Of a DNA stretch of 64,000 bases, positions 1,001-63,303 are shown piece after piece. A program made the translations under genes and the position numbers. Positions within the stretch are counted from its first letter, which is position 1. The number at the start of each line of letters is the position of its first letter. The notes beneath the pieces were generated by a model. It was given only the letters and a program-made list of their open reading frames with translations. It had not been told where the DNA came from and ran no database searches. The DNA is taken from positions 6,664 through 70,663 of the forward strand of contig DATEGA010000074.1 of the NCBI GenBank assembly GCA_035280345.1. Direction: 5' to 3'. This DNA is from a bacterium (GTDB taxonomy: Bacteria > Sysuimicrobiota > Sysuimicrobiia > Sysuimicrobiales > Segetimicrobiaceae).

Positions 1001-1012
1001 CGCGTCCTCCCC

Positions 1013-1888: not shown

Positions 1889-1889
1889 G

Positions 1890-5699: not shown

Positions 5700-5730
5700 C
5701 CTGCGGCTCCTCTCGAATGGCTCCCAGCGT

Positions 5731-7089: not shown

Positions 7090-7107
7090 CTGGTGCCTCC
7101 TATCGCT

Positions 7108-8466: not shown

Positions 8467-8482
8467 TCGCGACGCACGCTCC

Positions 8483-10301: not shown

Positions 10302-10358
10302 GGCCGTCTAGGGTCGCAGCGGCCCCCCGCGGGATTGGCCTCCGGCGTCGTCACGCCC

Positions 10359-45891: not shown

Positions 45892-46217
45892 CGGCCGTCG
45901 GCTCCGGCCCGAGATCGGCTCAACCACCCTGCACCACCGGCGGCCGACGCCTCGCGCGAGACAAGGCCGTGGTGCGCGACATCGGCTGCAGCGTGGACGG
46001 CTACAACTCGGTTCTTGCGCGCACGCTGCTCCTAGGTAGCCCGCCCGACGAGTTCCGCACGATCTATCCCATCGTCGGCGAAGCACAGGCCGAGGCGATC
46101 AAACCCGAACGCACCGACAAGGAGATTCATGCGTCGCTCTCAACTATATCCCGCGCCACGGCTTCGGAAGCGGGCAGGACGCTCACGACCCTGTACCTGC
46201 GGGCTCCCGTTGAATAA
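45888..46217 (+). pseudogene. Relic fragment of an M24 catalytic domain (no N-terminal domain, truncated C-terminus)
   Basis: The frame is open from 45888. Contains ...LARDKAVVRDIGCSVDGYNSVLARTLLLGSPPDEFRTIYPIVGEAQAEAIKPERTDKEI..., which matches the M24 block GD.v.iD.G....GY.sD.tRT...G.....y..v..aq..ai. About 110 codons only. The 3' end overlaps the convergent Gfo/Idh/MocA gene. Confidence 0.45.
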
Positions 46218-47190
46218 GTTCTGGCCGGCCGCTGCGCAGCGAACGCAACACGGCCTCGATTACCGTCAGATTGGACACCGCGTCCTCTGGTGAGTACGGG
46301 ACCGACGCGCCAGAGCGAACAGCATCGGCGAACCCCTCGACCATTCGCTGCGTCTGATTGACACCCGGCACGACTCTTCGGCTCTGCTCGGCGCCGCGAA
46401 AGTCGTAGAATTCAGCGTCGGCGGTCCCGGGCAAGAAGGCTTTCGGGATCAAAAACCGGCCATCGGTCCCGACGATCTCGACCTCTTCCCGCCGCATGAT
46501 GCGCAGGCCGCAATCGACGACCGCGGTTCGATGGGTATCGAACCGCAGGAGCGCAACGACCGCCTCGTCGACCCCGTGGCTGCCGATTCCCCCCCACGCG
46601 AAAACTTCGACCGGCTCGCCTAGCACCATCCGGCTGGCGTTGATACAGTAGCAGCCGACATCGTACAGAGATCCCCCGCCAAGGTCAGACCGGAAGCGAA
46701 TGTTTGTCCCAGGTTCCCGAACGGCGAATGTAAACGCCGCGCGCACGAGCCGCAGATCACCGATGGTGCCGGATGCGGCCAGCTCAGCAACCTGCAAAGT
46801 CCGCGGGTGAAACCGGTACATAAACGCTTCCATTAACTGAACCCCGTGCGCCCGGCAGGCCGCGATCATCTCGCGGGCCTCGAGCGCGGTCAGAGCGAGC
46901 GGCTTCTCGCAGAGGACGTGCTTCCCGGCCGCGGCGCTGCGCACCGTCCACTCTCGGTGCAGCGCGTTGGGCAGCGGGATATAGACCGCGTCGATCTCGG
47001 GGTCGGCGAGGAGCGCTTCGTACGACCCATGCGCACGCACGCCGAGACGCTCTGCCGCTTCACCGGCGCGGTCCGGCGTTCGGCTCGCGATGGCGACCAA
47101 CTCGGCGCCGCGCGCACTCTGGATCGCCGGGATGACGGTTCGGACGGCGATATTGGCGACGCCCAACACGCCCCATCGGATCGGCTTCAT
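46183..47190 (-). CDS. Gfo/Idh/MocA family oxidoreductase
   Basis: Trimmed to the ATG at 47190 (MKPIRWGVLGVANIAVRTVIPAI). Contains KHVLCEKPLALT and a family-typical C-terminal domain. Confidence 0.85.
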   Translation of the reverse strand: MKPIRWGVLGVANIAVRTVIPAIQSARGAELVAIASRTPDRAGEAAERLGVRAHGSYEALLADPEIDAVYIPLPNALHREWTVRSAAAGKHVLCEKPLALTALEAREMIAACRAHGVQLMEAFMYRFHPRTLQVAELAASGTIGDLRLVRAAFTFAVREPGTNIRFRSDLGGGSLYDVGCYCINASRMVLGEPVEVFAWGGIGSHGVDEAVVALLRFDTHRTAVVDCGLRIMRREEVEIVGTDGRFLIPKAFLPGTADAEFYDFRGAEQSRRVVPGVNQTQRMVEGFADAVRSGASVPYSPEDAVSNLTVIEAVLRSLRSGRPELIQREPAGTGS

Positions 47191-47215
47191 GGCTGCCGCA
47201 TCATCACCCCTGACT

Positions 47216-47941
47216 CTATTTGGCTCGCGTCCGCCGCCACTCCAGGAACTTCTTCTCTGTCTCGGCGCCCATCGGGTAGAGGCCGTCGAGGGGGGCCCCG
47301 CGGGCGAGCATGAGCCGAATGTATTCCTCACGATCTTCGTGCATCAGTACGTCTTCGACGATCTCCTCGACCATCGCGGACGGGATCACGACCACGCCGT
47401 CGGCATCCCCAAGCATGATGTCGCCGGGGCAGACCAGCACCCCGGCGCACCCGATCGGCACGTTATAGTCCACGTTAAACACCGAGCCGCCCGGGCTCGC
47501 GCTCCCGCGGCAGAAGATCGGGATATTCTTCTCGGCCATGTGCGGCGAGTCGCGCACGCACATGTCGGACACGATCCCCGTGGCGCCCTTCATCTTGATG
47601 CGTAGGGTAAGGAGGTCGCCAAACAATCCCTCGTTCGTCGCACCTCGGCCGTCGAGCACGACCACGTCGCCTGGCTTGATCGCCTCAATGGCGTCGTCCG
47701 GGTGCCCCGGAAACAGTGTCCCCTTGACGTAGGCGATGGATTGGAGATCGTCGCGGCCCGGCACGCTCCGGATGGTGAGCGCCGGCCCCGCGACCCGCAT
47801 GCCCGGAAACAGCGGCTTCAGGCGGATCCAGATGTTCTTGATGCCCCTGCGCCGGAAGATCGTCGTCAGCGTCGCCGTACTCGCCCGGCTGAGGGTCCGG
47901 ATTGTCTCTTCGCTCGGGCGCTCGAAATCCGGTCCGTGCAT
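47216..47941 (-). CDS. RraA family protein (4-hydroxy-4-methyl-2-oxoglutarate aldolase / oxaloacetate decarboxylase-like)
   Basis: Trimmed to the ATG at 47941 (SD GAAGGAGAA, 6-nt spacer). Contains GDVVVLDGRG...GDLLTLRIKMKGATGIVSDMCVRD...GDIMLGDADGVVVIP. Confidence 0.8.
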   Translation of the reverse strand: MHGPDFERPSEETIRTLSRASTATLTTIFRRRGIKNIWIRLKPLFPGMRVAGPALTIRSVPGRDDLQSIAYVKGTLFPGHPDDAIEAIKPGDVVVLDGRGATNEGLFGDLLTLRIKMKGATGIVSDMCVRDSPHMAEKNIPIFCRGSASPGGSVFNVDYNVPIGCAGVLVCPGDIMLGDADGVVVIPSAMVEEIVEDVLMHEDREEYIRLMLARGAPLDGLYPMGAETEKKFLEWRRTRAK

Positions 47942-47966
47942 CTTCGATTCTCCTTCGGGTTCGCGG

Positions 47967-49010
47967 TTAGTCGCAGGCCGAGAGCTGTTCGGCGATTGCG
48001 GACGAGTACAGAAACGCATTGGGCGCGCCGCCGGTGTGAAGAAACACCACCGCATCCCCCAGCCCGATCACGCCTCGTCGGATTGAGTCCACCAACCCCG
48101 CCCATCCTTTGCCGGTGTAAACGGGGTCCAGCAAGATGCCCTCAGCGCGGGCCGCCTGCACAATCGCGTCCAGGGCGGCGGGCGTCGGGACGCCGTATCC
48201 CGGACCGATATAGCCGTCTGTCACATCCACCTCTTCGTCGGGCACCGAGACGGAGCTCCCGAGAAGTTCGGCCGCGTGCCGCATCTTCTCGATGATCCGG
48301 CGGCGATGTTCCTCCGCGGGCGCGTTGACGGACACGCCCAGCACATGGCAGCTCAACCCCGCCATGCGCAGGCCGAGCAGCAGCCCGGCATGCGTCCCTC
48401 CCGATCCGACCGCCAGCACAACGTGCTCGCAGCGTTCGCGCATCCCGCGGATCTGCCCCGCGAGTTCCGCCGCGCCGTGCACGTACCCGACGGCGCTCAA
48501 GGGACCGGAAAACGTGCCGAGGTGGATTGGGTACGGACATCCGCCGCGCCGGCGTACTTCGTCCTCGATCTCGCGCATGCGGACGAAGGTCGACTCCGCG
48601 TACGGATCGTCCGTCTGCAAGAAGCGCACGTCGGCCCCGAACAGACGCATGAGCAGCAGATTCCCCGCGAGCGGCGCGTCCGGAGCGCCGCGCACGAGCA
48701 AGATGGCCTTCATGCCGACGCGCGCGGTGGCCGCGGCGGTGAGCCTGAGGAAGTTCGATTGGAGTCCGGCGGTGGTGATGATGGTGTCGGCCCCGCGGGC
48801 CCGGGCGTCGCCCAGCAGGAACTCGAGTTTTCGGACCTTGTTGCCGCCCAACCCCAGACCCGTCAAATCGTCCCGCTTTACTAACAATCGTCGGACGCCC
48901 AGTTCGAGGGCCAGCCGCGGCGCGTCGTCCAGCGGCGTCGGAAGCGTCGCGAGCGCGATGCGCGGGAACTGTTTGATGGCGCCGGTCGCAGCAATGGGGT
49001 GGTCACGCAT
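47967..49010 (-). CDS. PLP-dependent ACC deaminase / D-cysteine desulfhydrase family protein
   Basis: Trimmed to the ATG at 49010 (MRDHPIAATGAIKQFPRIALATLPTPL). Contains VKRDDLTGLGLGGNKVRKLEFLL (PLP-lysine motif) and VLAVGSGGTHAGL. Overlaps the upstream stop by 8 nt. Confidence 0.82.
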   Translation of the reverse strand: MRDHPIAATGAIKQFPRIALATLPTPLDDAPRLALELGVRRLLVKRDDLTGLGLGGNKVRKLEFLLGDARARGADTIITTAGLQSNFLRLTAAATARVGMKAILLVRGAPDAPLAGNLLLMRLFGADVRFLQTDDPYAESTFVRMREIEDEVRRRGGCPYPIHLGTFSGPLSAVGYVHGAAELAGQIRGMRERCEHVVLAVGSGGTHAGLLLGLRMAGLSCHVLGVSVNAPAEEHRRRIIEKMRHAAELLGSSVSVPDEEVDVTDGYIGPGYGVPTPAALDAIVQAARAEGILLDPVYTGKGWAGLVDSIRRGVIGLGDAVVFLHTGGAPNAFLYSSAIAEQLSACD

Positions 49011-50505
49011 GCGAGGCCCCTTCTCGTTGCGGATTTGCGCCCGAGCGAGACGGCGCCCCTGCGCCGCGGAGCAGCCGGAGCAACGGCTCGAGATCCGGCA
49101 GACGATCGAAGTCGTTGAGCACAAGATGCACGACCTCGTTTCGCCGGTCCTCGGGCAGCAGTGGTCTGGTCATCTCCATGAACTTGTCGATAAGGTCCGG
49201 TGTCGCGTAATACATCTCCCGCGGCGCCCACATGTCGCCGTACGAGTACTCCGTCGAGCGCCGAAACGTCCGTCCCCGAGCCCTAACCTCGACCTCCGCT
49301 GGGGCGCGCGTGAGGACTTCGGCGATCGACGGCCCCGTCCATGAACGATACGTGATTTCGGTCGTCTGAGGATTACCTTCGATGCGAACCTTCCGCATGA
49401 TTCCGAGGAATGCCGGATCGTCAAGGAGGCGTAAATCGGCCCATCGCGGACCACGTGGGACCCCCGTCAAGGCAAGCGCCACACCGAACTCGGCGCTCAT
49501 GTGCGCTCCCTCCGGCGTTGTCGGCGGCTCGCCGGCGTACGGCCGGTCGGCACCTGCCGGCGCATGCATGCGCAGGATGACCTCCTCGATGTCGCCCGCG
49601 GACAGCCTCTCGTCGCGGCGGAGGGCGGACAAAAGCCACACGTGAGGCCGGTACAAGTTGCAGAGCGGCTCGGACTTGTAATTGAGCCAGCGAATGCTGT
49701 CCCAATCGGACCCCAGTCCCCGCAGGAGATACTCCGGCTCGAAGCGGTCGCTGCCCCAATACTGCGCGAACCCTTCCCGTGAATCGAGCACGCTGGTGTC
49801 GGCCGTATAGCCCTTGGCCGCCAGCAACGCGGCCGTCGCGCCTGCCTGAGCCGTCCATCCCATCGGCGCGTATTTGACCATGGAGAACGGCGTCGCGCGA
49901 AGCCATTGGAGCACACTCGGGACGGGCGCATAGTAGGCGGCCAACCCAAAGGCGTGCGCCATGCGTTCGGCGTCGAGACCGCGCAATCTGCCTGCGCCGG
50001 CCGCGGCCCCGATCGCCCCGTACCCGTAGCCGCACACCGGTCCGACGACATAGCGTGTCCGGGTCCCATCGTAACCTTCGCGCATCGGCGTCATCGCGAG
50101 GGCGAGCCGGCCTGCGATTTCTAGTCCGACGATCGCTGCGTCAAGCACCTGCCGGCCGCTTGCCCCGACCGCTTCGCCGACGGCAAGTACGGCCGGCACA
50201 ATGATCGGCACGATATGCGCGACGTTCAGGAACCCGGCATCGGCGTCCAGGGCGTTTGCCAATTCCCCATTTGCGAAACTCGCGTGGTCCGCACTCACAC
50301 GACGGCCGCCGCCGAGGATTGAGGCCTCCGGTGCACCTCCGAGGTCGGCGGCAAGTTCCACCGCAAGACGGCCTTTGAGGGTCGTCCATCCACCGAGAGC
50401 GCAGCCGATCGTATCGAGAATAAGACGCCTGGCCTCAGGGACGATATCGTCCGGAATCCCCGCGATCTCGGACGCGAACGCCGCCAGCGTCTGTGTGGTG
50501 CTCAT
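49003..50505 (-). CDS. MmgE/PrpD family protein (fourth, more divergent paralogue)
   Basis: 500 aa, SD GAGGTGA. Contains MSTTQTLAAFASEIAGIPDDIVPEARRLILDTIGCALGG. Family-length two-domain layout. Confidence 0.8.
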   Translation of the reverse strand: MSTTQTLAAFASEIAGIPDDIVPEARRLILDTIGCALGGWTTLKGRLAVELAADLGGAPEASILGGGRRVSADHASFANGELANALDADAGFLNVAHIVPIIVPAVLAVGEAVGASGRQVLDAAIVGLEIAGRLALAMTPMREGYDGTRTRYVVGPVCGYGYGAIGAAAGAGRLRGLDAERMAHAFGLAAYYAPVPSVLQWLRATPFSMVKYAPMGWTAQAGATAALLAAKGYTADTSVLDSREGFAQYWGSDRFEPEYLLRGLGSDWDSIRWLNYKSEPLCNLYRPHVWLLSALRRDERLSAGDIEEVILRMHAPAGADRPYAGEPPTTPEGAHMSAEFGVALALTGVPRGPRWADLRLLDDPAFLGIMRKVRIEGNPQTTEITYRSWTGPSIAEVLTRAPAEVEVRARGRTFRRSTEYSYGDMWAPREMYYATPDLIDKFMEMTRPLLPEDRRNEVVHLVLNDFDRLPDLEPLLRLLRGAGAPSRSGANPQREGASHA

Positions 50506-50553
50506 CGCCTCACCTCGACCACCGCGTCACGCGCCCGCGCCGGCGGCTCGTCT

Positions 50554-51723
50554 TCACCATATGCGCGGCGGCTCCCACTCGACGACGCCGGGCCCGGCCC
50601 AAAACCAGCAGGGCCCCTCGTTGTCGAACCGGCGCGCGTACTCACGAACGAGTCCTTCGTCGAGATCAACCCCAAGCCCCGGCGCCTCTGGTACGCCGGC
50701 AGATCCATCCTCGAGCGAAAATGGCGTCCGGACGACGTCTCCGTCCAGCAGGTGGAGTACCGTTTGATTCGCGTGCACCATCGAGGGCGTCGCCGCGGCG
50801 AGGTGCACGATCGCGGCCGTGGCAATCCCTAGTTCGCCAGTGCTGCGCATCCAGAACCCGAGACCCAACGAGGCCGCCGCCGCTGCGGCCTCTCTTGCGG
50901 AGTCGAGGCCGCCTTCCGACGGCAGGTCGAACACGATGTTGTCCGCGGCGCGAAGACGCGCCACGGCCGTCGCATCGGCACAGTGGGTGGAAAGCGGGAT
51001 GGATGTTTCCTTCCTGATGTCGGCCAGCGGCGCAAGCCCGCGGCAGGGTTCCTCGACATTCGCCAGGCCGTACGGCTCGAGCGCGTCAAGGGTCCGGATC
51101 GCCGTTCGGGGAGACCAGCCGCCGTTTGCATCGATGCGGATCGCGGTGCCGGATCCGATGCGTTCGCGCAGCCGCCGGATCGTGTCGACGTCGCGCTGGG
51201 GTTCATGCACGCCGACCTTGACCTCGAGGGTCTCGGCGCGCATCTTCGCCAGCACCGCCACCGCGCCGTCCGCGATGACCTCGGGAGCGGTCTCATCGGC
51301 GGGCGGGTAATAGTAGGCCGTAAAGGGCACCCGGTCGCGCACGCGGCCGCCCCACAGCTCGTGCAGCGGCCGGCCCACCGCCTTGCCGAGGACGTCGTAC
51401 AGCGCCATCTCGACACCGCTGTACGCCCACGGATCGCTCTCCCACGCGCGGCCGAACGTGCCGGGCATGCCGAGCCCTGGCAGAAACCGCATCCGCAGTT
51501 TCGCGAGATCACGTGGATCCTGCCCGACGATCGCGGGCGCCAGCACATGATCGATCACGTACTTGGACTGATAGTGCAGGGTCTCCCCCAGCCCGGTGAT
51601 GCCTGTGTCCGAATGCACCTTGACGATCGTGCGCGTGACACCGCGCCCCACGCGGCCGTGCGAGCGGTGGCGGCGGTGAAACGGCACGTTTACGGTGACA
51701 GTCTCGATCGAGGCGATTTTCAC
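50554..51723 (-). CDS. Enolase-superfamily enzyme (mandelate racemase/muconate lactonizing enzyme family)
   Basis: 389 aa, GTG start with SD GGAGG 6 nt upstream. Contains ITGLGET, LEVKVG, IRIDANGGW and NVEEP metal-ligand-type blocks. Confidence 0.82.
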   Translation of the reverse strand: MKIASIETVTVNVPFHRRHRSHGRVGRGVTRTIVKVHSDTGITGLGETLHYQSKYVIDHVLAPAIVGQDPRDLAKLRMRFLPGLGMPGTFGRAWESDPWAYSGVEMALYDVLGKAVGRPLHELWGGRVRDRVPFTAYYYPPADETAPEVIADGAVAVLAKMRAETLEVKVGVHEPQRDVDTIRRLRERIGSGTAIRIDANGGWSPRTAIRTLDALEPYGLANVEEPCRGLAPLADIRKETSIPLSTHCADATAVARLRAADNIVFDLPSEGGLDSAREAAAAAASLGLGFWMRSTGELGIATAAIVHLAAATPSMVHANQTVLHLLDGDVVRTPFSLEDGSAGVPEAPGLGVDLDEGLVREYARRFDNEGPCWFWAGPGVVEWEPPRIW

Positions 51724-51735
51724 CGCATTCCTCCG

Positions 51736-52638
51736 CTAATACCGGCCCTGCGGATCGAGATAGTCCCGCAGCGCGTCGCCGAACCATCCGACCACCATGA
51801 CCACGAACGTCAGAAACAGCCCCGGCATCGTCGCGATCCACCAGGCATTGTCAAGGTACTCCCGGCCCTCGCTGATCGTCACGCCCCACGACGGCAGCGG
51901 CCGCGGGATACCGAGCCCGAGAAAACTAAGCGCAGCCTCGGCGAGCATCTGCGCGCCCACCTGGAGGGTCGCGACGATGATGATGGGCGTCAGCATGTTG
52001 GGCAGAATATGGCCCCAAATCACGCGGATGTGCGTCGCGCCCTGGGCGCGCGCCGCCTCGACAAACTGGCTCTCGCGCAACGCGAGCACGGAGCCGTAGG
52101 CGAGGCGCGTAAACACGGCCCAGCGGATGATCGAGAGGGTCAGAATGACGTTGAGCACCGACGGCCCGAGAATCGCGGCGATGAGAATCGCGAGCAACAG
52201 CGCCGGGAACGAGAGCTGCAGGTCGGCGAGCCGCATAATCACCGAGTCGGCCGCGCCGCGGTAGTAGCCGGCGACCAGGCCGAGGGCCGTGCCAGACGCG
52301 CCGGCGAGGACAACCGTGCTCGCGGCAACGAGCATCGAAACCCTGGCCCCGTGCACGACCTGCCCCGCGAGGTCACGGCCGAGCTGGTCCGTGCCGAGCC
52401 ACGCGACCTGTCCGTTGGCAAGCCGAGTGCCCGGCGCCAAGAGATGCTGTTCGAGCCGCAGCGCCACCGGATCGTACGGCACGAGAAACGGCGCTCCCAG
52501 CCCGGCCACCGTCACCGCGGCCAGCAGCGCGCCGGTCCAGAGCAGACGCCGTCCACGCCGGGTGTGCGTCCACGGCCGCGCCGACGCATCCGTTCGTTTC
52601 CGCGATCCGCGCGGCAGCGCCGCCGCGGTGCTCATCAT
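51736..52638 (-). CDS. ABC transporter permease, DppC/OppC-like
   Basis: Track ORF 51736..53076 trimmed to the ATG at 52638 (ATGA overlap). Contains AWLGTDQLGRDLAGQVVHGARVSM, QFVEAARAQGATHIRVIWGHILPN and GDALRDYLDP. Confidence 0.88.
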   Translation of the reverse strand: MMSTAAALPRGSRKRTDASARPWTHTRRGRRLLWTGALLAAVTVAGLGAPFLVPYDPVALRLEQHLLAPGTRLANGQVAWLGTDQLGRDLAGQVVHGARVSMLVAASTVVLAGASGTALGLVAGYYRGAADSVIMRLADLQLSFPALLLAILIAAILGPSVLNVILTLSIIRWAVFTRLAYGSVLALRESQFVEAARAQGATHIRVIWGHILPNMLTPIIIVATLQVGAQMLAEAALSFLGLGIPRPLPSWGVTISEGREYLDNAWWIATMPGLFLTFVVMVVGWFGDALRDYLDPQGRY

Positions 52639-53555
52639 TGGTAGCGGATCCGCGGATCCAGGCACGCGTAGGCGACGTCGGCGGCCAGATTGCTGAGCAC
52701 GAACACCACGGCGGTAAACACCACCGCGGCCTGGACGAGCGGATAATCGCGGTTCTCGATAGCGGTGACGATCAATCGCCCCAACCCGGGCCAGGCGAAT
52801 ACCGTCTCGGTGACCACGACCCCGCCCACCAGCGTTCCGAGCTGCAACCCGATCATCGTGACGACCGGGATCAGCATGTTGCGGTAGATGTGGCGGACGA
52901 GCACGCCGGTCTCGGGGAGACCCTTGGCGCGGGCCGTCCGCGCGAAGTCCTGGCCCGCCATTTCCAGGATCCCCGCACGAGTAAGCCGCGTCAGCAGTCC
53001 GATAAACTGCATCGACAGCGTCACGGCCGGAAGGACGAGATGCCAAAGACCGCCCCGGCCGAACGACGGCAGCCATTTCAAGTCACGGGAGAAGATCAAG
53101 ATCGCCACGAGTCCAAGCCAGAAGTTGGGCGCGGCCTGGGCGACCAGCGACAGCGTTTCGATGAGGCGGTCGAGGACCGAATGCGCCCAGCGCGCGGCAA
53201 CGGACCCCAGCACGAAGCTGGCGGCCACAGAGAGCGTGAGGCTCGCTGCCGCGAGTTCGGTGGTCGCCGGAACCCTCGCCAGAACTAGGCCCATCGCGCC
53301 GGAGCCCTCGTAGTAGGAACGCCCCCAGTCGCCCAGCACGGCCTGGCGCATGAACAAAACGTATTGCACGGCGCGCGGCCGGTTCAGGCCGAGGCGTTCG
53401 CGCTGCTCGGCGATCAGCTGCGGCGTAGCGTAGGTCCCCAGGAGCACGGCCGCCGGATCGCCCGGAAGCACGCGCACGATCAGGAAGATGACCGTGAGCG
53501 CGCCCCACACAACGAGGAGCGCGGCCAACAGGCGCCGGGCGATAAAGCCGCCCAC
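52635..53555 (-). CDS. ABC transporter permease, DppB/OppB-like
   Basis: 306 aa, GTG start. N-terminus GGFIARRLLAALLVVWGALTVIFLIVRVLPGDP. Contains DFARTARAKGLPETGVLVRHIYRN and ends YACLDPRIRYQ. Confidence 0.9.
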   Translation of the reverse strand: MGGFIARRLLAALLVVWGALTVIFLIVRVLPGDPAAVLLGTYATPQLIAEQRERLGLNRPRAVQYVLFMRQAVLGDWGRSYYEGSGAMGLVLARVPATTELAAASLTLSVAASFVLGSVAARWAHSVLDRLIETLSLVAQAAPNFWLGLVAILIFSRDLKWLPSFGRGGLWHLVLPAVTLSMQFIGLLTRLTRAGILEMAGQDFARTARAKGLPETGVLVRHIYRNMLIPVVTMIGLQLGTLVGGVVVTETVFAWPGLGRLIVTAIENRDYPLVQAAVVFTAVVFVLSNLAADVAYACLDPRIRYQ

Positions 53556-53598
53556 TATTGCCGGCGCGGCCCCGTCCGGCTAGCGCACGGCGCCGACG

Positions 53599-55107
53599 CT
53601 ACGGCGAAACCGCGGCGTTGGCAACGCTGAAAATCTCGGCCGGCGGCGCGGTGAAGCCCTGGACGCGCGTCCGGTATGCGTAGCTCTCGAGCGGATCGAA
53701 CAGGAAGACCGCGGGCCCCTGATCCCAGATGATTTCCTGCGCTCGCTTATACATTGCGCATCGCTGTTGGAGGTTCACGGACGCGGCGGCGTCGTCCATC
53801 AGCTTGTCGAACTCCGGATTGGACCAGCCGGTCCGCTTGCTGCGCGTGTGGTACAAGCGACGCAGCGTGAAATCGGGATCGCCGGTGCCGCCGCCCGTCG
53901 TCGCAATCTCGAAGTCCCAGTTCAACTTCAATAGGTCGTCGAGCCAGATCGCGCGGGGCTGCTGCATGTTCCGGACCCGGATGCCGACGAGCGCCAGCTG
54001 CCCGACGATCGCGTCGGAGACCTCGCGCTCCTTCGGGTTGCCCTCGGTCCACTTGATCGACGTGTCAAAGCCGCGCGGGAACCCTGCCTCCGCCAGCAGC
54101 TTGCGGGCCAGCGTCGTGTCGTACGAAATGGACGGCATCTTCGCGTAACAGACGACGTTGGACGCGATCGAGGATGTCGACGGCGTCGCGATCCCGGCGA
54201 CCAAGGAACTGGTGATCGCGTTCACGTTGATCGCGTGCTGCAGCGCGTGCCGCACGCGGACGTCCGTAAACGGCGGCCGCGACGCGTTGATCCACAACGC
54301 CCGGGTCAGCGTCGTCGGGCCAACTTCGACCTTCACGCCCTGGATCGTCCTGAGGCGCTTCATTTCCTCGGGCGGGAGCCCGACCGCAATGTCGATCTCG
54401 CCGGTCTCGACCGCCGTCGCCCGCGCGGCGACCTCGGGGATATCGACGAAGATCAGCCGCTGAGCCTTCGGGACGCCCTGCTGCCAATAGTTCGGGTTGG
54501 CGTCGAGGACGAGGCGCGCGTCCCGGACGAACTCGGTGAACTTAAACGGACCCGTCCCGATCGGGTGGTCGCCAAAATCGGGCGTCGGCGGCGTGCCGGC
54601 AGGGACCATCGCGAGAATGGTCAGGCTGGACAGGAGTGTTCCAACCGGATCCTGCGTCTTGATGATGACCCGGTACGGATCGGGCATCTCAACGGACTGC
54701 ACCGGAGCGAACAGCGGGGCGAGCGGACCCTTCATGGCGATGACCCGCTCGAGCGACGTCTTGACCGACGCGGCCGTGAAGTCGCGGCCGTCGTGGAACT
54801 TCACGCCGCGCCGCAACTCGAACTCCCACGTCGTCGGATCGACGTTTCGCCAGCGCAGCGCCAGTTGCGGCTGAAACTTCTTCGCCGTGTAGTCCCACGA
54901 CACGAGCTGATTGTAGAGGTGCCGGCCGATGATCCACGACATCCGCTCCGCGCCCGCGCTACCGTGCGGATCGAGCGACAGGATCCGCTGCAGGTACGAG
55001 ACGCGGAGGGTGCCCGGCGCCGGAGCGGCCGTCGTCATCCCGGCGCCCAGTCCGACGAGCAGTAGGCCCACGAGCACCACGGCCGCGACTGACCGCCTCA
55101 CCACCAT
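53599..55107 (-). CDS. ABC transporter substrate-binding protein, family 5
   Basis: Track ORF 53599..55557 trimmed to the ATG at 55107 (MVVRRSVAAVVLVGLLLVGLGAG; G-rich SD). Contains LALRWRNVDPTTWEFELRRGVKFHDGRDFTAASV and GTGPFKFTEF. Confidence 0.88.
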   Translation of the reverse strand: MVVRRSVAAVVLVGLLLVGLGAGMTTAAPAPGTLRVSYLQRILSLDPHGSAGAERMSWIIGRHLYNQLVSWDYTAKKFQPQLALRWRNVDPTTWEFELRRGVKFHDGRDFTAASVKTSLERVIAMKGPLAPLFAPVQSVEMPDPYRVIIKTQDPVGTLLSSLTILAMVPAGTPPTPDFGDHPIGTGPFKFTEFVRDARLVLDANPNYWQQGVPKAQRLIFVDIPEVAARATAVETGEIDIAVGLPPEEMKRLRTIQGVKVEVGPTTLTRALWINASRPPFTDVRVRHALQHAINVNAITSSLVAGIATPSTSSIASNVVCYAKMPSISYDTTLARKLLAEAGFPRGFDTSIKWTEGNPKEREVSDAIVGQLALVGIRVRNMQQPRAIWLDDLLKLNWDFEIATTGGGTGDPDFTLRRLYHTRSKRTGWSNPEFDKLMDDAAASVNLQQRCAMYKRAQEIIWDQGPAVFLFDPLESYAYRTRVQGFTAPPAEIFSVANAAVSP

Positions 55108-55297
55108 CACGGCATCCCCCCCGATGCGACTCGATTGCAGACTAAACTCGAGGAAGAGACTACCAACCCGGTGCGGCAAGTCTCCTGCAATCAACCCTGC
55201 GGTAGAGCGTACGATAGGAACCCTCCCCGATGCCACAGAAGGCCGCGAGGCCGGACGATTGCGCGTACGACGACAACCGCGAGAGGAGCGTGCCCAC

Positions 55298-56899
55298 ATG
55301 CTCGTACCGAACGGATCGGGATGGCGTTCCGCGCTGGCGGCGGCCGCGGTCGTTCTTGTGGCATCGACCGTTTCCGTGGGGGCCCCGGCGGCCCCTGCAC
55401 CGGGTGGCACGTTGACGCTCGGAATTCGCCAGGAGCCGAGCACAACCGATCCGCACGCGTCCGCCAACGGAGTGTCGCAGAGAGTGCTCGCGCATCTGTA
55501 CGACGGCCTCGTGTATATGACCCCGGACGGCGCGTACCACCCGTGGCTGGCCACCAAGTGGACGATCGCCCCGGACGGAATGACCTACACGCTGACGCTC
55601 CGCTCGGGGGTAAAGTTCCACGACGGCACGCCGTTCAATGCCACGGCCGTGAAGGTCAGTCTCGACCGCATTATCGATCCGGCCACGCGGTCCACTTCCG
55701 CGATTTCCGCGATCGGACCGTATGCCTCGAGTGAAGTGGTCGATGCGTCCACGATTCGCGTGCATCTCAAGGAGCCGTACAGTCCGTTCATCAACGCGCT
55801 GAGCCAGCCGTGGCTGGGCATCGTCTCACCGACGACCGTCAAGAGCTGGGGCCGGGATTTCGCCCAGCATCCCGTGGGCACAGGGCCGTTCAAGTTCGTG
55901 GAGATGGTTCCGCAAGACCACATCACGCTGGTGCGCAACGCTGACTACGCGTGGCCGCCCTCCGCCGGGAAAGCGCACTCCGGTCCCGCGTATCTGGAGC
56001 GCCTCGTGATCCGGACGGTCCCCGAAGATTCGACCCGGCTCGCCACCCTCCAGAACGGAGAGACGAATCTCATCGAGCCGCTGCCCGAACAAAACGTGGC
56101 CCAGGTCCAGGGCGACCCGAGCCTGTATGTGCTCAAGCAACTCGAGATGGGCGCGGGCCGCGTGGTACTCTTGAACACCCAGCGCGCGCCCACGAACGAC
56201 GTGCGGGTGCGCCGGGCGATTGAATTCGGGGTTGACACCGCGACACTCGTGAAAACGCTGTTTTACGGGCAGCACGTGGTGGGGCGATCGCCGGTGTCGC
56301 CGGTCATGCCCGGCTACGACAAGAGTCTCGAACGCATCTACACGTACGACCCGACAAAGGCCCGCCAGCTCCTGGACGAAGCGGGCTGGCGGCCCGGCCA
56401 GGGCGGCGTTCGCTTCAAGGATGGACAACCGCTCCGGATGAGCCTCTTCATCATTCCCAACATCGGGTCGGAGCCAACGGCCGAATACCTCCAGTCGCAA
56501 CTCCGGCAGATCGGCATTGACCTGGAGATCCGGGCGCTGGCCCGCGCCGCATGGTATGAGGGCATTAACCGGGGAGACCACAACCTCACGCTGGCGTTCT
56601 TCATCTGGCCCGACCCCGACATGCTGCGCACGCTCTATTTCTCGACCAACATCCCGTTCAACTGGTTCCACTACAACAACCCGGAGGTCGACCGGATGCT
56701 GGTGCAGGCCAACCGACTCACCGACATGCGGGCACGCATCAACCTCTACCGTCAAGTGATGCGGAAGGTTATGGACGATGCGCTCCCCCTCACCCTGTAT
56801 TATGAGAACAACATCCTTGCCGCCCGGCGCACGCTGCAGGGCGTCAAGTTCGATGCGGTGGGATACCCGCTGTTCTATGACGCCTACATCACGCGGTGA
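55298..56899 (+). CDS. ABC transporter substrate-binding protein, family 5
   Basis: Track ORF 54929..56899 trimmed to the ATG at 55298 (SD GAGAGGAG). Leader MLVPNGSGWRSALAAAAVVLVASTVSVGA. Contains LATKWTIAPDGMTYTLTLRSGVKFHDGTPFNATAV and GTGPFKFVEM. Confidence 0.88.
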   Translation: MLVPNGSGWRSALAAAAVVLVASTVSVGAPAAPAPGGTLTLGIRQEPSTTDPHASANGVSQRVLAHLYDGLVYMTPDGAYHPWLATKWTIAPDGMTYTLTLRSGVKFHDGTPFNATAVKVSLDRIIDPATRSTSAISAIGPYASSEVVDASTIRVHLKEPYSPFINALSQPWLGIVSPTTVKSWGRDFAQHPVGTGPFKFVEMVPQDHITLVRNADYAWPPSAGKAHSGPAYLERLVIRTVPEDSTRLATLQNGETNLIEPLPEQNVAQVQGDPSLYVLKQLEMGAGRVVLLNTQRAPTNDVRVRRAIEFGVDTATLVKTLFYGQHVVGRSPVSPVMPGYDKSLERIYTYDPTKARQLLDEAGWRPGQGGVRFKDGQPLRMSLFIIPNIGSEPTAEYLQSQLRQIGIDLEIRALARAAWYEGINRGDHNLTLAFFIWPDPDMLRTLYFSTNIPFNWFHYNNPEVDRMLVQANRLTDMRARINLYRQVMRKVMDDALPLTLYYENNILAARRTLQGVKFDAVGYPLFYDAYITR

Positions 56900-56917
56900 C
56901 CGGCTCGCCCGTGCGCG

Positions 56918-57844
56918 ATGACGTCGTACGCGGCACGGCGGGTACTGTCCACGCTGCCCGTGCTGGCCGGAATTACCGTGTTTGTGTTCTTGATGCTGCA
57001 CCTCGTCCCCGGAGATCCGGTGGTACTGCTGCTCGGGGAAGGCGGTGTCGCCTCTCCCGAGGCGATGAACGCGCTTCGCCATGAGCTCGGCCTGACCGAC
57101 CCGCTCCCGCTGCAATTTGTCCGTTACGCCCGCGACATGGCCCGCGGCAATTGGGGCCGGTCGATTCGCTTCAACCGGCCGGTCCTGGCGCTGCTGATCG
57201 AAAACGGACGGTACACCATCGAGCTCGCCGCCGCCGCCCTCGTGATCGCCGTCGCCGCCGGCGTGTCGCTCGGGATCCTCGCCGCCGTCCAGCGTACGGG
57301 ATGGGGAGACAGCGTAGCGATGTTCGTGTCGCTCGTCGGCGTCTCGATGCCCAGCTTTTGGCTCGGGGCGCTCCTGATCTTCGCGTTCTCGTTGCACTTC
57401 CGATGGTTCCCGGCCATCGGGCAGGGCGGGTTGAACCGGCTCGTGCTGCCGGGCTTCGCGCTGGCATTCGCCCCCATGGCGAGCCTCGCGCGTCTGGTCC
57501 GAAGCAGTCTGCTGGAGACGTTCGGCGAGGATTATGTGCGCACGGCGCGGGCGAAGGGCGTGGCCGAACCGGCGGTCGTGATGCGGCACGCGTTTCGCAA
57601 CGCGTTGATCCCGGTCGTCACGTTCTTCGGCCTCGAGATGGGCCGGCTGCTGGCCGGCGCCTTTGTCGTTGAAACCGTGTTTTCTCGTATCGGCTTGGGG
57701 CGAACGATCGTCAATGCCATCTTGAACAAGGACTTTCCCGTGGTGCAGGGCGCGGTGCTGTTCGTCGCGGTGTTGTACGTCGCCGTTAATCTGGCCGTCG
57801 ACCTGTCGTACGCGGTGCTCGATCCGCGCGTACGCTTCGAGTGA
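56918..57844 (+). CDS. ABC transporter permease, DppB/OppB-like
   Basis: 308 aa. N-terminus MTSYAARRVLSTLPVLAGITVFVFLMLHLVPGDP. Contains DYVRTARAKGVAEPAVVMRHAFRN and ends YAVLDPRVRFE. Confidence 0.9.
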   Translation: MTSYAARRVLSTLPVLAGITVFVFLMLHLVPGDPVVLLLGEGGVASPEAMNALRHELGLTDPLPLQFVRYARDMARGNWGRSIRFNRPVLALLIENGRYTIELAAAALVIAVAAGVSLGILAAVQRTGWGDSVAMFVSLVGVSMPSFWLGALLIFAFSLHFRWFPAIGQGGLNRLVLPGFALAFAPMASLARLVRSSLLETFGEDYVRTARAKGVAEPAVVMRHAFRNALIPVVTFFGLEMGRLLAGAFVVETVFSRIGLGRTIVNAILNKDFPVVQGAVLFVAVLYVAVNLAVDLSYAVLDPRVRFE

Positions 57845-58698
57845 CGGCGCCGGCGCCGAGCGGGGCGCGAGGGACCGTATGGCAACGCATCCGCCGGCAT
57901 CCCCACATGGTGGCCGGCGGCTCGGTCTTTCTGGCCCTCGTGCTTCTCGCCGTCGCCGCCCCGATCGTCGCCGACGCGGATCTCTACTTAATGCAGCCGC
58001 AGGACGCGCTCCGGCCGCCCTCGCAGCGGCATTGGTTCGGAACCGACGAGTTCGGCCGCGATCTCTTCACGCGCGTCGTGCACGGCGCGCGCCTATCGCT
58101 CAGTGTCGGCGTGGTCGCCGTCGGCATCGCCTGCGGACTCGGCGTCGCCGTCGGCCTGGCGTCCGGATACTACGGCGGCTTTCTGGACCTCGGTCTGATG
58201 CGCCTGGTGGATCTGATGCTCGCGTTTCCTGGGATTCTACTGGCCCTCGCCATCGTCGCGATTCTCGGTCCGGGACTGACCAACGCGATGATCGCCGTCG
58301 GCATTACCGGAATTCCCTCGTATGCGCGAGTCGTCAGGGGCGCGGTGCTTCAAGCCAAAGCGTTCCCGTACGTCGAGGCCGCCCGCGCGGTTGGCGTCCC
58401 CTCGCGGGTGATTCTCGTCCGCCACGTCCTCCCGAACGTCGCGGCGCCGATCATCGTCCTCTCGACACTGAACATGGCCGCGGCGATTCTCACCGCGGCC
58501 GCACTGAGCTTTCTCGGGCTTGGCGCGCAGCCCCCACAGCCGGAGTGGGGTGCCTTGCTCAACGCCGGCCGAAACTGGCTTCAGCGCGCGTGGTGGTTAA
58601 CGACCTTTCCCGGACTGGCGATCATGGTGACGGTGTTGGCAATCAATACGCTGGGAGACGGGCTTCGGGACGTCCTCGATCCCCGACTAAAGGGGTGA
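57841..58698 (+). CDS. ABC transporter permease, DppC/OppC-like
   Basis: 285 aa, GTGA overlap. Contains HWFGTDEFGRDLFTRVVHGARLSL, PYVEAARAVGVPSRVILVRHVLPN and GDGLRDVLDPRLKG. Confidence 0.9.
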   Translation: MTAPAPSGARGTVWQRIRRHPHMVAGGSVFLALVLLAVAAPIVADADLYLMQPQDALRPPSQRHWFGTDEFGRDLFTRVVHGARLSLSVGVVAVGIACGLGVAVGLASGYYGGFLDLGLMRLVDLMLAFPGILLALAIVAILGPGLTNAMIAVGITGIPSYARVVRGAVLQAKAFPYVEAARAVGVPSRVILVRHVLPNVAAPIIVLSTLNMAAAILTAAALSFLGLGAQPPQPEWGALLNAGRNWLQRAWWLTTFPGLAIMVTVLAINTLGDGLRDVLDPRLKG

Positions 58699-58842: not shown

Positions 58843-58911
58843 TTACTGAAGGAGCAGGTGACCAGTTGCCCACATCATCAAACCGGCCAGCAGCAGAAAC
58901 GCGACTAACAT
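58843..58911 (-). CDS. Unannotated 22-aa hydrophobic micro-protein (MLVAFLLLAGLMMWATGHLLLQ)
   Basis: Below the track's size cut-off. ATG at 58911 follows SD GGGGAGGTG (6-8 nt spacing). TAA stop at 58843-58845. The terminator hairpin begins 23 nt downstream. Lies 95 nt after the CUT1 permease stop. Third-position GC is only moderate, so coding status is unproven. Confidence 0.4.
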   Translation of the reverse strand: MLVAFLLLAGLMMWATGHLLLQ

Positions 58912-59006
58912 GGCCCCCACCTCCCCGTACCTTTTTAGCAGTCGCCCGTATTATGACCCGGCGAAGTGAAGACGGCGCACAGTTGCTGTGAAGATCCTTT
59001 GAATTC

Positions 59007-59876
59007 TCACCCCTTGAGTCCGGCGGTGGCGATGCCACGGACATAGTAGCGCTGGAAGATGACAAACAAAATAAGCGGCGCCGCGGCCGCCAGCGAGAGG
59101 GCGGCGAAGATCTTGTCGTACTGAATGGCGTCGCCCTGCCCGAACGTCGCCACCGCGACCTGCACCACTCGCATGCTCGCGTTGTTCGTCACGACGAGCG
59201 GCCACGTGAAGCTGCCCCACATCTCCTGAAACGCCAGGAGCGCAACAGACAGCAGTACCGGCCGGCTGAGCGGCAGCACGATGCGCCAGTAGATGCCCCA
59301 GTGCTGGCATCCGTCGATCCGAGCGGCGTCTTCCAACTCTTTCGGCAGCCCCAGGAAGAATTGCCGGAGGAGAAAGACGCTCAACGCCCGCGGGACCATG
59401 GGTATGATCAGCACGGCATACGAGTCCACCCACCCAAGCCACCGCACGATCAGGTACAGGGGGACCAGGATTGCTTCGAACGGGATGATCATCACAGTCA
59501 GCACCAGGAAGAACAACAACTCCCGTGCCGCGAACCGGATGCGGGCGAACGCGTAGGCGGCCATTGAACTCGCCGCCACGTCGAGCACAGCCACGCTCCC
59601 GGCCACCACGAACGAATTGATCAAATACCGAGCAAAGGGCTCGTCGTGAAACAGATGCCGGTAGCTGTCGAGTGTCGTATGCCGCGGCAGCACCGTCCAC
59701 AGACCGAATGGATACACATACTGGAAGATCTCCGCGGCGGGACGCAGCGAGGACAAGAACATCCAGACCAGTGGAAAGACGAAGAACACGGCCAGCACGA
59801 GACGCCCCGCGGACAGCATCACTTCCAGCCGCGGCGCGTGCTGCCGCGCACCCCGCCCGAGCGGCACATGAGTCAT
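59007..59876 (-). CDS. Carbohydrate (CUT1) ABC transporter permease, MalG-like
   Basis: 289 aa, ATGA overlap. Contains LEDAARIDGCQHWGIYWRIVLPLSRP (EAA loop) and six predicted TM stretches. Confidence 0.88.
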   Translation of the reverse strand: MTHVPLGRGARQHAPRLEVMLSAGRLVLAVFFVFPLVWMFLSSLRPAAEIFQYVYPFGLWTVLPRHTTLDSYRHLFHDEPFARYLINSFVVAGSVAVLDVAASSMAAYAFARIRFAARELLFFLVLTVMIIPFEAILVPLYLIVRWLGWVDSYAVLIIPMVPRALSVFLLRQFFLGLPKELEDAARIDGCQHWGIYWRIVLPLSRPVLLSVALLAFQEMWGSFTWPLVVTNNASMRVVQVAVATFGQGDAIQYDKIFAALSLAAAAPLILFVIFQRYYVRGIATAGLKG

Positions 59877-60811
59877 TCGCTACGATCCTCGCGCAGCAGC
59901 CAGAACTGAATCGCGGCCAATCCTAGAATGAGGAACAGCAGCGCGAACGACAGCGCGGACGCGTAGCCGAGGTGCACGTAGCGGAACGCTTCGCGGAAGA
60001 GATGGAACACGAGGACGGTCGTCGAGTTCATCGGGCCGCCGCTCGTGATGACGTAGACGGGCGTGAAGATCTTGAATGCCTCGATCGTGTTGACGACAAC
60101 TACGAACAATGTGATCCGCTGCAGGAGCGGCCACGTAATCGACCAAAATCGGCGCGCCCCCCGCGCGCCGTCCATCTCCGCGGCCTCGTACAGTTCGAGC
60201 GGAATCTCGTGCAGCCCGCTGAGATAGATAAGCATGGTGATGCCTGACCACTTCCACGTGGACATCACGGCGATCAGGGGCAGCGCCTGGCGGGGATCCT
60301 GGAAGAAGAGCTGGGGTGGTAAGTGCCCGAGGGCCACCAGGCTGTTGACCGGCCCGTTCGGTGTCGCGAAGAGGATCTCCCAGAGTCCGGCGGCAACGAC
60401 GTAAGACACGACAACCGGCATGAAATAGGCCGTTCGCAGCACGGCGATCCACCGCGCGGAGGGCTGCACGATCAGGGCCAAACCCAGGCCGGCCGCCGTC
60501 TGCAGCGGCACCAGCATGAGCGCGTAGGCGGTGGTGTTGCGCAGCGCGGTCCAGAAGATGGGATCGGCCGCCAGCGCGGCATAGTTCCGCATCCCGACGA
60601 ACGGCGGATGAGGGTTCACTAGATCGTAGTTGTGCAGGCTGACGACGAAGGCGTAGAGGATCGGAGCGATGCCGAAGACGAGCACACCCAGCACCGCCGG
60701 GAGCACAAAGACGTACGCGCTGAGCTCCGGCCGGCGACGCCGCACAAGCCAGCCTGCCGGCAGAGCCACGGCGGCCGCCCGGCCGCCGGCTCCAACCGCT
60801 GCGCGCGTCAC
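59873..60811 (-). CDS. Carbohydrate (CUT1) ABC transporter permease, MalF-like
   Basis: 312 aa, GTG start. Contains LYEAAEMDGARGARRFWSITWPLL (EAA loop). Confidence 0.88.
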   Translation of the reverse strand: MTRAAVGAGGRAAAVALPAGWLVRRRRPELSAYVFVLPAVLGVLVFGIAPILYAFVVSLHNYDLVNPHPPFVGMRNYAALAADPIFWTALRNTTAYALMLVPLQTAAGLGLALIVQPSARWIAVLRTAYFMPVVVSYVVAAGLWEILFATPNGPVNSLVALGHLPPQLFFQDPRQALPLIAVMSTWKWSGITMLIYLSGLHEIPLELYEAAEMDGARGARRFWSITWPLLQRITLFVVVVNTIEAFKIFTPVYVITSGGPMNSTTVLVFHLFREAFRYVHLGYASALSFALLFLILGLAAIQFWLLREDRSE

Positions 60812-60824
60812 CGCGTCCTAACCG

Positions 60825-62162: not shown

Positions 62163-62196
62163 CCCGGAGACCCCTCCCCCCGCGTTGTACAGCGCG

Positions 62197-63165: not shown

Positions 63166-63303
63166 CAGCGTACTCCACACGGGGCCGACGTTGTGAAGCA
63201 GTGCTGAGCGTGGAACTTCTTCGCAAGGCCGGCACCCTCGACCTCCCGGCCTGTGCGCGGCCGCAGGCTTAGAATGGGTTTGCGCAGGGCCGGCTGCCGC
63301 CAG

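Follow-up and report, generated by a model that had tools for sequence, protein, structure and literature searches.

Eight genes on the minus strand of contig DATEGA010000074.1, at positions 46183-55107 of the 64,000-nucleotide stretch that we analysed (hereafter the window), are predicted to make up one uptake-and-breakdown operon of an uncultured rhizosphere bacterium. Since seven of the eight genes recur together on other contigs, the block does not appear to be a chance arrangement, and its eighth gene, coding for a Gfo/Idh/MocA-type oxidoreductase, looks by its distribution like a lineage-specific add-on outside the conserved unit. The cassette is conserved but rare, a variant of a familiar importer-linked gene cluster, and its enolase-superfamily enzyme (here called Enol1) appears from alignments to fit no characterised subgroup of that superfamily. 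We suggest, with roughly even confidence, that the block serves to take up and degrade a small compound of the rhizosphere, amino acid-like and rich in carboxylates, via the steps proposed below.

A tightly packed, predicted operon of eight genes

The window belongs to a 3.66-Mb metagenome-assembled genome (MAG; 321 contigs, 91% complete). The nearest relatives of this genome are likewise MAGs and bear the labels ‘Bacillati bacterium ANGP1’, ‘uncultured Firmicutes bacterium’ or, with no further detail, ‘bacterium’. Only two public sequencing runs contained the stretch, both of them rhizosphere DNA metagenomes, and no RNA run did. The map of open reading frames (ORFs) holds eight tightly packed ORFs at the locus, each of which was placed in a family by Pfam (E-values of 1e-28 to 1e-81) and whose starts were chosen with the lengths of orthologues as support. 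They are listed below in the direction of reading, followed by the region in front of them.

53599-55107, minus strand: family-5 (Dpp/Opp/Nik-type) solute-binding protein (SBP), 502 amino acids (aa); PF00496, E 4e-81
52635-53555, minus strand: ATP-binding cassette (ABC) permease of the DppB/NikB type (permease B), 306 aa; PF00528 and PF19300
51736-52638, minus strand: ABC permease of the DppC/NikC type (permease C), 300 aa; PF00528
50554-51723, minus strand: enolase-superfamily enzyme Enol1, 389 aa; PF13378 and PF02746
49003-50505, minus strand: MmgE/PrpD-family enzyme, 500 aa; PF03972 and PF19305
47967-49010, minus strand: fold-type-II pyridoxal 5'-phosphate (PLP) enzyme of the D-cysteine desulfhydrase / D-cysteate sulfo-lyase family, 347 aa; PF00291
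47216-47941, minus strand: long-form RraA-like protein, 241 aa; PF03737
46183-47190, minus strand: Gfo/Idh/MocA NAD(P) oxidoreductase, 335 aa; PF01408 and PF22725
55108-55336, no strand assigned: divergent intergenic region, presumed promoter region; from the ORF map and Pfam

From the SBP gene to the Gfo/Idh/MocA end, the successive gaps measure 43, -4, 12, 48, -8, 25 and 25 nucleotides (nt), the negative values being a 4-nt ATGA overlap at 52635-52638 and an 8-nt overlap at 49003-49010. The original prediction, made from the sequence letters, had described this eight-gene minus-strand block with both overlaps, had named the gene families and had pointed to a lysine motif, GGNKVRKLE, in the PLP enzyme; the ORFs and overlaps are present as described, Pfam agrees for all eight genes and the motif is found in the translation. 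At the finer resolution of NCBIfam, none of the five enzymes reached an equivalog cut-off, and the sole subfamily cut-off passed was that of NF006093, by the RraA-like protein.

The 229-nt intergenic region in front of the operon is shared with a second, divergent SBP-led importer operon of the Dpp type (SBP and two permeases, likewise ATPase-less; 55337-58698, plus strand). No sigma-70 consensus was found in 55108-55336, and since a scan for sigma-70 promoters and terminators yielded no more than it did in shuffled sequence, such a scan carries no information in a genome as GC-rich as this one.

A conserved unit of seven genes that survives rearrangement

The conserved unit comprises the genes for the SBP, the two permeases, Enol1, the PrpD-like enzyme, the PLP enzyme and the RraA-like protein, and its gene order is kept in the metagenome loci L088 (87% identity of the PrpD-like protein), L089 (76%) and L001/L002 (75%). 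Where the PrpD-like protein is 58-63% identical (L003/L010/L112, L005, L009, L090 and L087), the order of the genes has changed, but they remain next to one another. In these loci the enolase gene is divergent from a PrpD-SBP-permease-permease series, and the opposite strand carries the genes for the PLP enzyme (~60% identical), for another RraA-like protein (219 aa, 34-36% identical), for a second enolase-type protein and for a PatB C-S lyase. Even L091, with a PrpD identity of 45%, holds an FCD regulator, the RraA-like protein (71%), the PLP enzyme (47%), a permease and PrpD together; in L008 (genome G069) a PrpD orthologue (55% identity) stands alone among transposases. Because the linkage survives such shuffling, the importer, Enol1, the PrpD-like enzyme, the PLP enzyme and the RraA-like protein probably share a function. 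The idea of an importer-linked catabolic cassette is strengthened accordingly by the synteny of enolase-type, PrpD, PLP and RraA genes, which outlives rearrangement to 45-60% identity.

The conservation of the neighbourhood, which the original prediction had proposed to analyse, holds for these seven genes and breaks off at the eighth. The Gfo/Idh/MocA gene is the last operon gene in this genome only and is absent from all related cassettes, its place being taken by a nucleoside hydrolase gene in L088, a PNP/UDP phosphorylase gene in L089 and a gene for a glyoxalase-fold protein in L001. The oxidoreductase had been drawn into the pathway, a view that we gave up, as unrelated genes replace it in every relative. 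Its closest match in the PDB is the sugar 3-ketoreductase KijD10 (3rbv). As to its start, 47 further codons of the ORF (46183-47331) precede the ATG at 47190, and their inclusion would make it overlap the RraA-like gene; the shorter form begins with a canonical N-terminal Rossmann motif, MKPIRWGVLG.

Several local features of these loci deserve mention. In L001/L002 (1942-8565), the importer part is interrupted by insertion sequence elements, whose transposases are of the DDE_Tnp_IS240-like and DDE_3 kinds, permease B is broken into ORFs of 111 and 204 aa, and the importer looks decayed. In L088 (8366-13635), two nucleoside-hydrolase genes and a CUT1 importer directly follow the RraA-like gene, whereas in the window such a nucleoside-hydrolase/CUT1 set (58843-64000) lies ~4 kb beyond the opposite end of the cassette; because the set stands at opposite ends, local rearrangement around the cassette appears to have taken place.

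A commoner base module with exchangeable front ends

We determined the distribution of the genes over the 94 species representatives of the phylum in the genome collection. An orthologue of the PrpD-like enzyme occurred in five of the 94 (and in none of the five congeners), and Enol1 in three, each time adjoining PrpD; the PLP enzyme, at an identity of at least 57%, was present in about 16. At least six genomes hold another set of genes, here called the base module, in which an orthologous importer (SBP 61-66%, permeases 66-72% identical to those of the window) is joined to the PLP enzyme and to an RraA-like protein, along with a galactonate-dehydratase-like enolase termed MR2, without PrpD and Enol1. 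These loci are L101, L103, L104, L106, L109 and L110 (genomes G007, G006, G005, G026, G009 and G025, respectively), and their RraA-like protein is of the 219-aa type. DUF6772 is added in three further loci (L097, L107 and L108), whose importer has diverged more strongly (SBP 40%, permeases 49-56%). The PLP enzyme is accompanied there by DUF6772, a protein of ~110 aa, DUF3830 and an RraA-like protein, the last of these being of the 241-aa type in L097 and L108 (82% identical to that of the window) and of the 219-aa type in L107; DUF6772 is also found near PrpD in L087. Judged by these gene contents, a base module of importer, PLP lyase and RraA-like protein is commoner in the phylum than the version with PrpD and Enol1. 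The latter two form a rarer front end, which joins the base module in loci of the L003 type and takes the place of MR2 in those of the window type.

The PatB-family enzyme of the L003-type loci was at first taken for an aminotransferase (Pfam Aminotran_1_2), an assignment that we dropped on the TIGR04350 score. The protein (L003, 14992-16158; also in L005 and L112) reaches 349 bits against a cut-off of 340 bits for this C-S beta-lyase model, and its gene shares one operon with those of the PLP enzyme, the RraA-like protein and MR2.

Enol1 departs from the known enolase subgroups at its active site

Enol1 carries both domains of the enolase superfamily, the capping domain (PF02746, E 5.5e-12) and the TIM barrel (PF13378, E 3.9e-42), and its AlphaFold model (pLDDT of 90.5) matches 4dye with TM scores of 0.87-0.90. 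The residues at the strand ends are E167-x-K169, D198, E224, H247, D266 and R293, and the model indeed puts K169, D198, E224, H247, D266 and R293 at the C-terminal ends of strands 2-7. Within the Enol1 clade K169, D198, E224 and D266 are retained, with D198 and E224 as invariant metal-ligand positions. At three other positions, however, the alignment sets the clade apart from its outgroups: E167-x-K169 is fixed across the whole clade, including a member of 42% identity, where the outgroups have K-x-K or Y-x-K; the third metal-ligand position reads T-H247 in the whole clade and A-D, A-N or T-N outside it; and at strand 7 the clade has R293-S in place of the M-H-S-N with its catalytic His of the outgroups of the glucarate dehydratase (GlucD) type. 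The clade is also sharply bounded, as the identity of homologues drops abruptly from at least 57% (the clade travelling with PrpD) to ~40%.

Enol1 reached no NCBIfam cut-off. Membership in the muconate-lactonizing enzyme (MLE) subgroup would call for K-x-K and a strand-6 Lys, in place of which Enol1 has E167-V-K169 and D266, and the mucon_cyclo model scored 142.7 bits against a cut-off of 334.95. The mandelate racemase (MR) and GlucD subgroups likewise have K-x-K at strand 2, besides a His-Asp dyad; of the latter, D266 is present in Enol1, but R293 replaces the strand-7 His, and the glucarate dehydratase model gave 61.7 bits against a cut-off of 828.7. The best matches in the PDB, 4dye and 2oqh from Streptomyces coelicolor (32% identity), are uncharacterised structural-genomics targets, followed by 3vdg, 3vc5, 2pgw and GlucD-related proteins. 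The structures 4dye and 2oqh and the GlucD-related proteins share the strand-6 Asp with Enol1, but have K-x-K and a strand-7 His where the Enol1 clade has E-x-K and R293, the latter clade having in addition His247. A link of 2OQH/4DYE to the characterised cycloisomerase SCO3480 was considered and dropped, as no connecting paper was found.

The original prediction had noticed that the stretch LEVKVG (residues 166-171) departs from the usual KxK motif, and this observation can now be extended, given that E-x-K is clade-wide and that changes are also seen at the third metal ligand and at the strand-7 His. Its description of the protein as an MR/MLE-type enzyme fared less well: because the end of strand 6 holds Asp, not Lys, Enol1 is not MLE-type. 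The alignment to enolase subgroups that it had called for matched no characterised subgroup or pathway. K169 is the only classical base left, and E167 and R293 could plausibly bind a substrate ammonium group and an extra carboxylate.

The most distant protein with the triad of ExK, T-H and R-S is P0066 in L113 (8574-11197; 42% identity to Enol1), whose gene overlaps that of an MttB-family methyltransferase by 4 nt and lies near D-amino-acid-oxidase-like and D-Ser-dehydratase-like genes. By analogy, this neighbourhood would fit an amino-compound substrate, followed by D-amino-acid chemistry.

The PrpD-like enzyme resembles iminodisuccinate epimerase

The second front-end enzyme belongs to the MmgE/PrpD family (PF03972 and PF19305), in which a catalytic His and two enolate-stabilising Lys residues have been described (PMC7347537, PMC12290011). 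The corresponding H97, K211 and K277 are invariant in its clade, as are D87 and C282; H97 aligns with H99 of iminodisuccinate (IDS) epimerase, and H97/K211/K277 with H103/K207/K272 of cis-aconitate decarboxylase (CAD). True PrpD is far away (NF042438, 21.7 bits against a cut-off of 950), and among solved structures the nearest are those of IDS epimerase (2hp0/2hp3) and of cis-aconitate decarboxylases, from which the protein is equidistant in a profile search (E ~5e-41). The clade is rare, with 19 clusters at an identity of at least 45% in 5.8 billion proteins.

By single-sequence search, the closest solved relative is the IDS epimerase of the iminodisuccinate degradation route of Agrobacterium tumefaciens BY6 (E 4e-28). 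In that route a PrpD-family enzyme changes the stereochemistry of a substituted succinate beside a C-N lyase, a pairing similar to the one seen here, and the two PrpD-family enzymes have in common the catalytic His, both Lys and a Cys 5 residues past the second Lys. The systems differ in that the BY6 lyase is of the fumarase/aspartase family, whereas the partner here belongs to the enolase superfamily, and in that the present cassette has an importer and two more enzymes, the PLP and the RraA-like one, in addition. The second-base Tyr of the two-base epimerases, IDS epimerase (Y145) and methylsuccinate isomerase (Y148), was also looked for: the nearest Tyr, Y151, lies 2 residues off the aligned position, and we withdrew it as a second base on account of this offset and of Y/F/H variation.

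A further PrpD-centred cassette lies at the start of the window (1-12020). It likewise combines an ATPase-less Dpp-type importer with diverged PrpD-family enzymes, but their partners are M20 hydrolases, OCD and an amidohydrolase, without enolase-type, PLP or RraA-like genes.

The base-module enzymes are a putative D-specific PLP lyase and a predicted RraA-type aldolase

The PLP enzyme has the domain (PF00291, E 4e-46) and the GGNKVRKLE motif of the D-cysteine desulfhydrase / 1-aminocyclopropane-1-carboxylate (ACC) deaminase family, and it matched a D-cysteine desulfhydrase structure in the PDB (7ysk, E 1e-70). It displays the motifs PVYTGK and HTGG, as D-Cys desulfhydrases do, whereas the Pseudomonas ACC deaminase 1rqx has PVYEGK and HLGG, the Glu and Leu of which (E295 and L322) mark ACC deaminase proper. 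Because PVYTGK/HTGG replace PVYEGK/HLGG, the protein is of the D-Cys-desulfhydrase type and not an ACC deaminase; with the ACC deaminase model TIGR01274 it scored 203.8 bits (cut-off of 392). The earlier label ‘ACC-deaminase-fold PLP enzyme’ holds for the family, not for ACC deaminase itself. The remaining NCBIfam scores were also below their cut-offs: CuyA 315/450, XcbE 307/450, D-Cys desulfhydrase 256.5/429 and the subfamily model TIGR01275 258.4/289.4.

There is a published precedent for feeding such an enzyme through a change of stereochemistry, namely the pairing of a racemase with the D-specific CuyA (PMC11193023). The logic of this cysteate dissimilation by CuyB/CuyA, in which a stereo-inverting enzyme feeds a D-specific lyase, is similar to the one proposed here, and CuyA is the top-scoring NCBIfam model for the PLP enzyme, yet its 450-bit cut-off was missed. 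Moreover, the cysteate pathway has no counterparts of the enolase-type, PrpD-like and RraA-like enzymes, and a CuyB-type racemase is absent from our cassette.

The RraA-like protein (PF03737, E 5e-30) passed the cut-off of NF006093, a model named ‘hypothetical protein’, with 224.2 bits (cut-off of 208). Its G-D and R-D motifs align with those of the 4-hydroxy-4-methyl-2-oxoglutarate/4-carboxy-4-hydroxy-2-oxoadipate (HMG/CHA) aldolase 3noj, which places it in the superfamily. Its V-R-D stands opposite R123-D124 of that enzyme. We predict from this that it is a class II pyruvate aldolase / oxaloacetate decarboxylase. With the HMG/CHA aldolase LigK/ProA (3NOJ) it shares the RraA-like fold, both motifs and a like predicted chemistry (pyruvate enolate, aldol cleavage, oxaloacetate decarboxylation). 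It belongs, however, to another subfamily (NF006093/PRK08245) with a C-terminal extension as in 5x15, and its gene lies in an amino-compound operon, whereas LigK sits in an aromatic pathway. The Streptomyces coelicolor structure 5x15, reportedly an RNase E inhibitor, is its closest structural match. The long-form subfamily is plentiful (662 clusters at E 1e-40 or better), and its genes are also found in other settings, such as adjoining sulfatases. Sulfatase genes beside or near long-form RraA-like genes or the cassette were seen on unrelated contigs in L099 (5455-7735), L100 (763-7729) and L087 (15629-17017).

An importer without ATPase genes in the block

The importer is of the Dpp/Opp/Nik type, and of the parts of such a set (a family-5 SBP, two permeases and two ATPases) the block encodes the SBP and both permeases. 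The SBP carries an N-terminal signal peptide and reached no NCBIfam equivalog (best GsiB, 180 bits against a 594-bit cut-off); its closest PDB chains are 5u4o and GsiB/YliB 1uqw, and its orthologues, with 61-94% identity, travel with both the cassette and the base module. Permease C has the same length, 300 aa, as its orthologues in L088 and L089. No ABC ATPase gene was found within the eight-gene block, and the importer would need to borrow ATPases from elsewhere in the genome, where four pairs of Dpp/Opp-type ATPase genes with an oligo_HPY domain are present on other contigs. The window contains several further ATPase-less importers; for the many importers of this kind, the genome has only these four ATPase pairs, all of them off this contig.

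A proposed route and its possible substrates

Gene content and linkage can be read directly from the loci, while the reactions and their order are deduced from superfamily chemistry. In the route that we propose, the Dpp/Nik-type importer would take the compound in, and the front-end enzymes, Enol1 and the PrpD-like enzyme, would each abstract a proton next to a carboxylate. Enol1 would do so with Lys169 as base, while Glu167 and Arg293 would bind an ammonium group and a further carboxylate of the substrate; the third metal position is taken by His247. The PrpD-like enzyme would act in the manner of IDS epimerase, with His97, Lys211 and Lys277. As a result, a stereocentre might be inverted and/or a substituent eliminated, giving a D-configured, beta-substituted amino acid. 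From this, the PLP enzyme would form a 2-oxo acid, ammonia and a leaving group (thiol, sulfite or water) by alpha,beta-elimination/deamination, and the RraA-like enzyme would finally release pyruvate by retro-aldol cleavage of the 2-oxo acid or by decarboxylation of oxaloacetate. The importer and the last two steps would correspond to the base module, which is joined to other front ends elsewhere in the phylum.

As for the substrate, characterised MmgE/PrpD enzymes all act at C2 of a C4 1,4-dicarboxylate via an enolate (PMC12290011), and by analogy with this habit we guess at a succinate-like moiety. Our leading guess would be 2,3-substituted succinate-type amino acids, for instance beta-substituted aspartates, of which 3-hydroxyaspartate is one, or S-/N-(1,2-dicarboxyethyl) amino acids, among them S-(2-succino)cysteine and iminodisuccinate-like aminopolycarboxylates. 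The PatB C-S lyase of the L003-type loci hints at S-substituted cysteine or thioether intermediates. In order of preference, we would place succinate-type amino acids before amino-sugar acids, and these before modified dipeptides. No relevant literature was found on this combination of enzymes.

Several observations weigh against this proposal. No enzyme reaches an equivalog cut-off, and every reaction is derived at the level of the superfamily. The replacement of the strand-7 His by Arg leaves Enol1 without an obvious second base for racemisation; the second-base Tyr of IDS epimerase (Tyr145) is likewise not kept in the PrpD clade (Y/F/H); and two of the six carboxylate-binding residues of the family are changed in it (N84, and no His at the WHP position), both being His in IDS epimerase, which weakens the C4-dicarboxylate argument. 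Moreover, L007 holds the cassette without an enolase gene: this locus of an ANGP1 MAG (1636-7912, PrpD 76%) has the SBP, both permeases, PrpD and the PLP enzyme, with ~280 nt at the place of the enolase gene, which is absent from the remainder of the genome (68% complete) as well. Oxaloacetate, for its part, requires no dedicated decarboxylase. Finally, MR2, the commoner partner in the base module, resembles an acid-sugar dehydratase and would suit an amino-sugar-acid substrate equally well.

This last point leads to a sugar-derived substrate, that is, an amino-sugar acid (2-amino-2-deoxy-aldonate/aldarate) or a glycosylamine- or opine-like conjugate, which we consider unlikely without dismissing it. 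Here the PLP enzyme would strip water and ammonia from a D-2-amino-3-hydroxy acid, and the resulting 2-keto-3-deoxy acid would be cut by the RraA-like aldolase into pyruvate and an aldehyde; Enol1 would be an acid-sugar dehydratase or cycloisomerase, and the Gfo/Idh/MocA enzyme would oxidise the sugar or aldehyde. In favour of such a scheme, 2-keto-3-deoxy acids are 4-hydroxy-2-oxo acids, the substrate class of pyruvate aldolases, and in the base module the PLP and RraA-like enzymes are joined to a galactonate/arabinonate-dehydratase-like enolase (228 bits). Enol1 has its nearest relatives in GlucD-related proteins and a ‘putative sugar isomerase’, the Gfo/Idh/MocA protein in sugar 3-ketoreductases and xylose or inositol dehydrogenases, and the family-5 binding proteins include the opine/oligosaccharide binders AgaA, AccA and AapF. 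However, Enol1 lacks the His used by the neighbouring acid-sugar dehydratases, the Gfo/Idh/MocA gene is not conserved in relatives, and the cassette has no kinase, glycosidase or sugar-type regulator. The PrpD-family substrates known so far are, in addition, not sugars (PMC12290011).

We judge it improbable that the substrates are D-amino-acid-containing or modified dipeptides, which Enol1 would epimerise, generic peptidases would cleave to free the D-amino acid, and the PLP enzyme would deaminate. The importer is of the peptide type, the dipeptide epimerases and N-succinyl-amino-acid racemases of the enolase superfamily do give weak matches, peptidase and deacylase cassettes abound elsewhere in the window, and the genes downstream in L001 include M14 and M19 peptidases and RidA. 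Against this, no peptidase or amidase belongs to the conserved seven-gene unit, Enol1 has Asp in strand 6 instead of the Lys of the MLE subgroup and lacks KxK, and the PrpD-like and RraA-like enzymes would be left without a role.

That the genes are mere neighbours without a common pathway, with the RraA-like protein acting as an RNase regulator and not as an enzyme, seems very improbable. The closest structure is indeed an RraA-type protein (5x15, from Streptomyces coelicolor), and the subfamily is far more widely spread than the PrpD and Enol1 clades and occurs in other contexts, including sulfatases; yet the linkage of RraA-like gene, PLP enzyme and importer outlasts rearrangement and even the swap of the RraA-like type, the catalytic R-D pair is retained, and the gaps are short, with two overlapping gene pairs. 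A LigK/LigC-like pair of RraA-type aldolase and Gfo/Idh/MocA dehydrogenase, taken over from the lower part of the protocatechuate 4,5-cleavage pathway, had been raised by the original prediction and has next to no probability in our eyes: LigC is a member of the Gfo/Idh/MocA family and the RraA-like protein gives sub-threshold matches to LigK/PcmE models (120.3 bits against 304.5 for TIGR02798, 126 against 179 for NF006731), but the analogy fails because the Gfo/Idh/MocA gene is replaced by unrelated genes in the related cassettes, and none of the eight genes codes for a hydratase, lactonase or dioxygenase of the protocatechuate pathway.

Returning to the amino acid-like substrate, we tentatively go one step further, to a reading that we regard as possible but rather doubtful. 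Enol1, with its E-x-K, third-metal His and Arg for the strand-7 His, might be the founder of a new enolase subgroup and, together with a new PrpD subfamily, might form the front end of an undescribed rhizosphere pathway for amino-polycarboxylates or thioether amino acids that runs via a D-specific PLP lyase and an RraA-type aldolase. Under this reading, S-(2-succino)cysteine, an iminodisuccinate- or aspergillomarasmine-like compound, or stereoisomers of 3-hydroxyaspartate would be our guesses.

Implications

Importer-linked catabolic operons are common; in this one, three of the four enzymes come from clades without a characterised member, and Enol1 departs from the enolase superfamily at three canonical catalytic positions. 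The modular build, in which an importer, a PLP lyase and an RraA-type aldolase are shared and front ends are exchangeable, offers a convenient start for the assignment of functions. It could aid work on PRK08245, a ‘hypothetical’ family of long-form RraA-like proteins with a wide distribution in soil metagenomes, and on the largely unexplored MmgE/PrpD family, and it could reveal which small nitrogen-bearing acids are used as food by an uncultured rhizosphere phylum.

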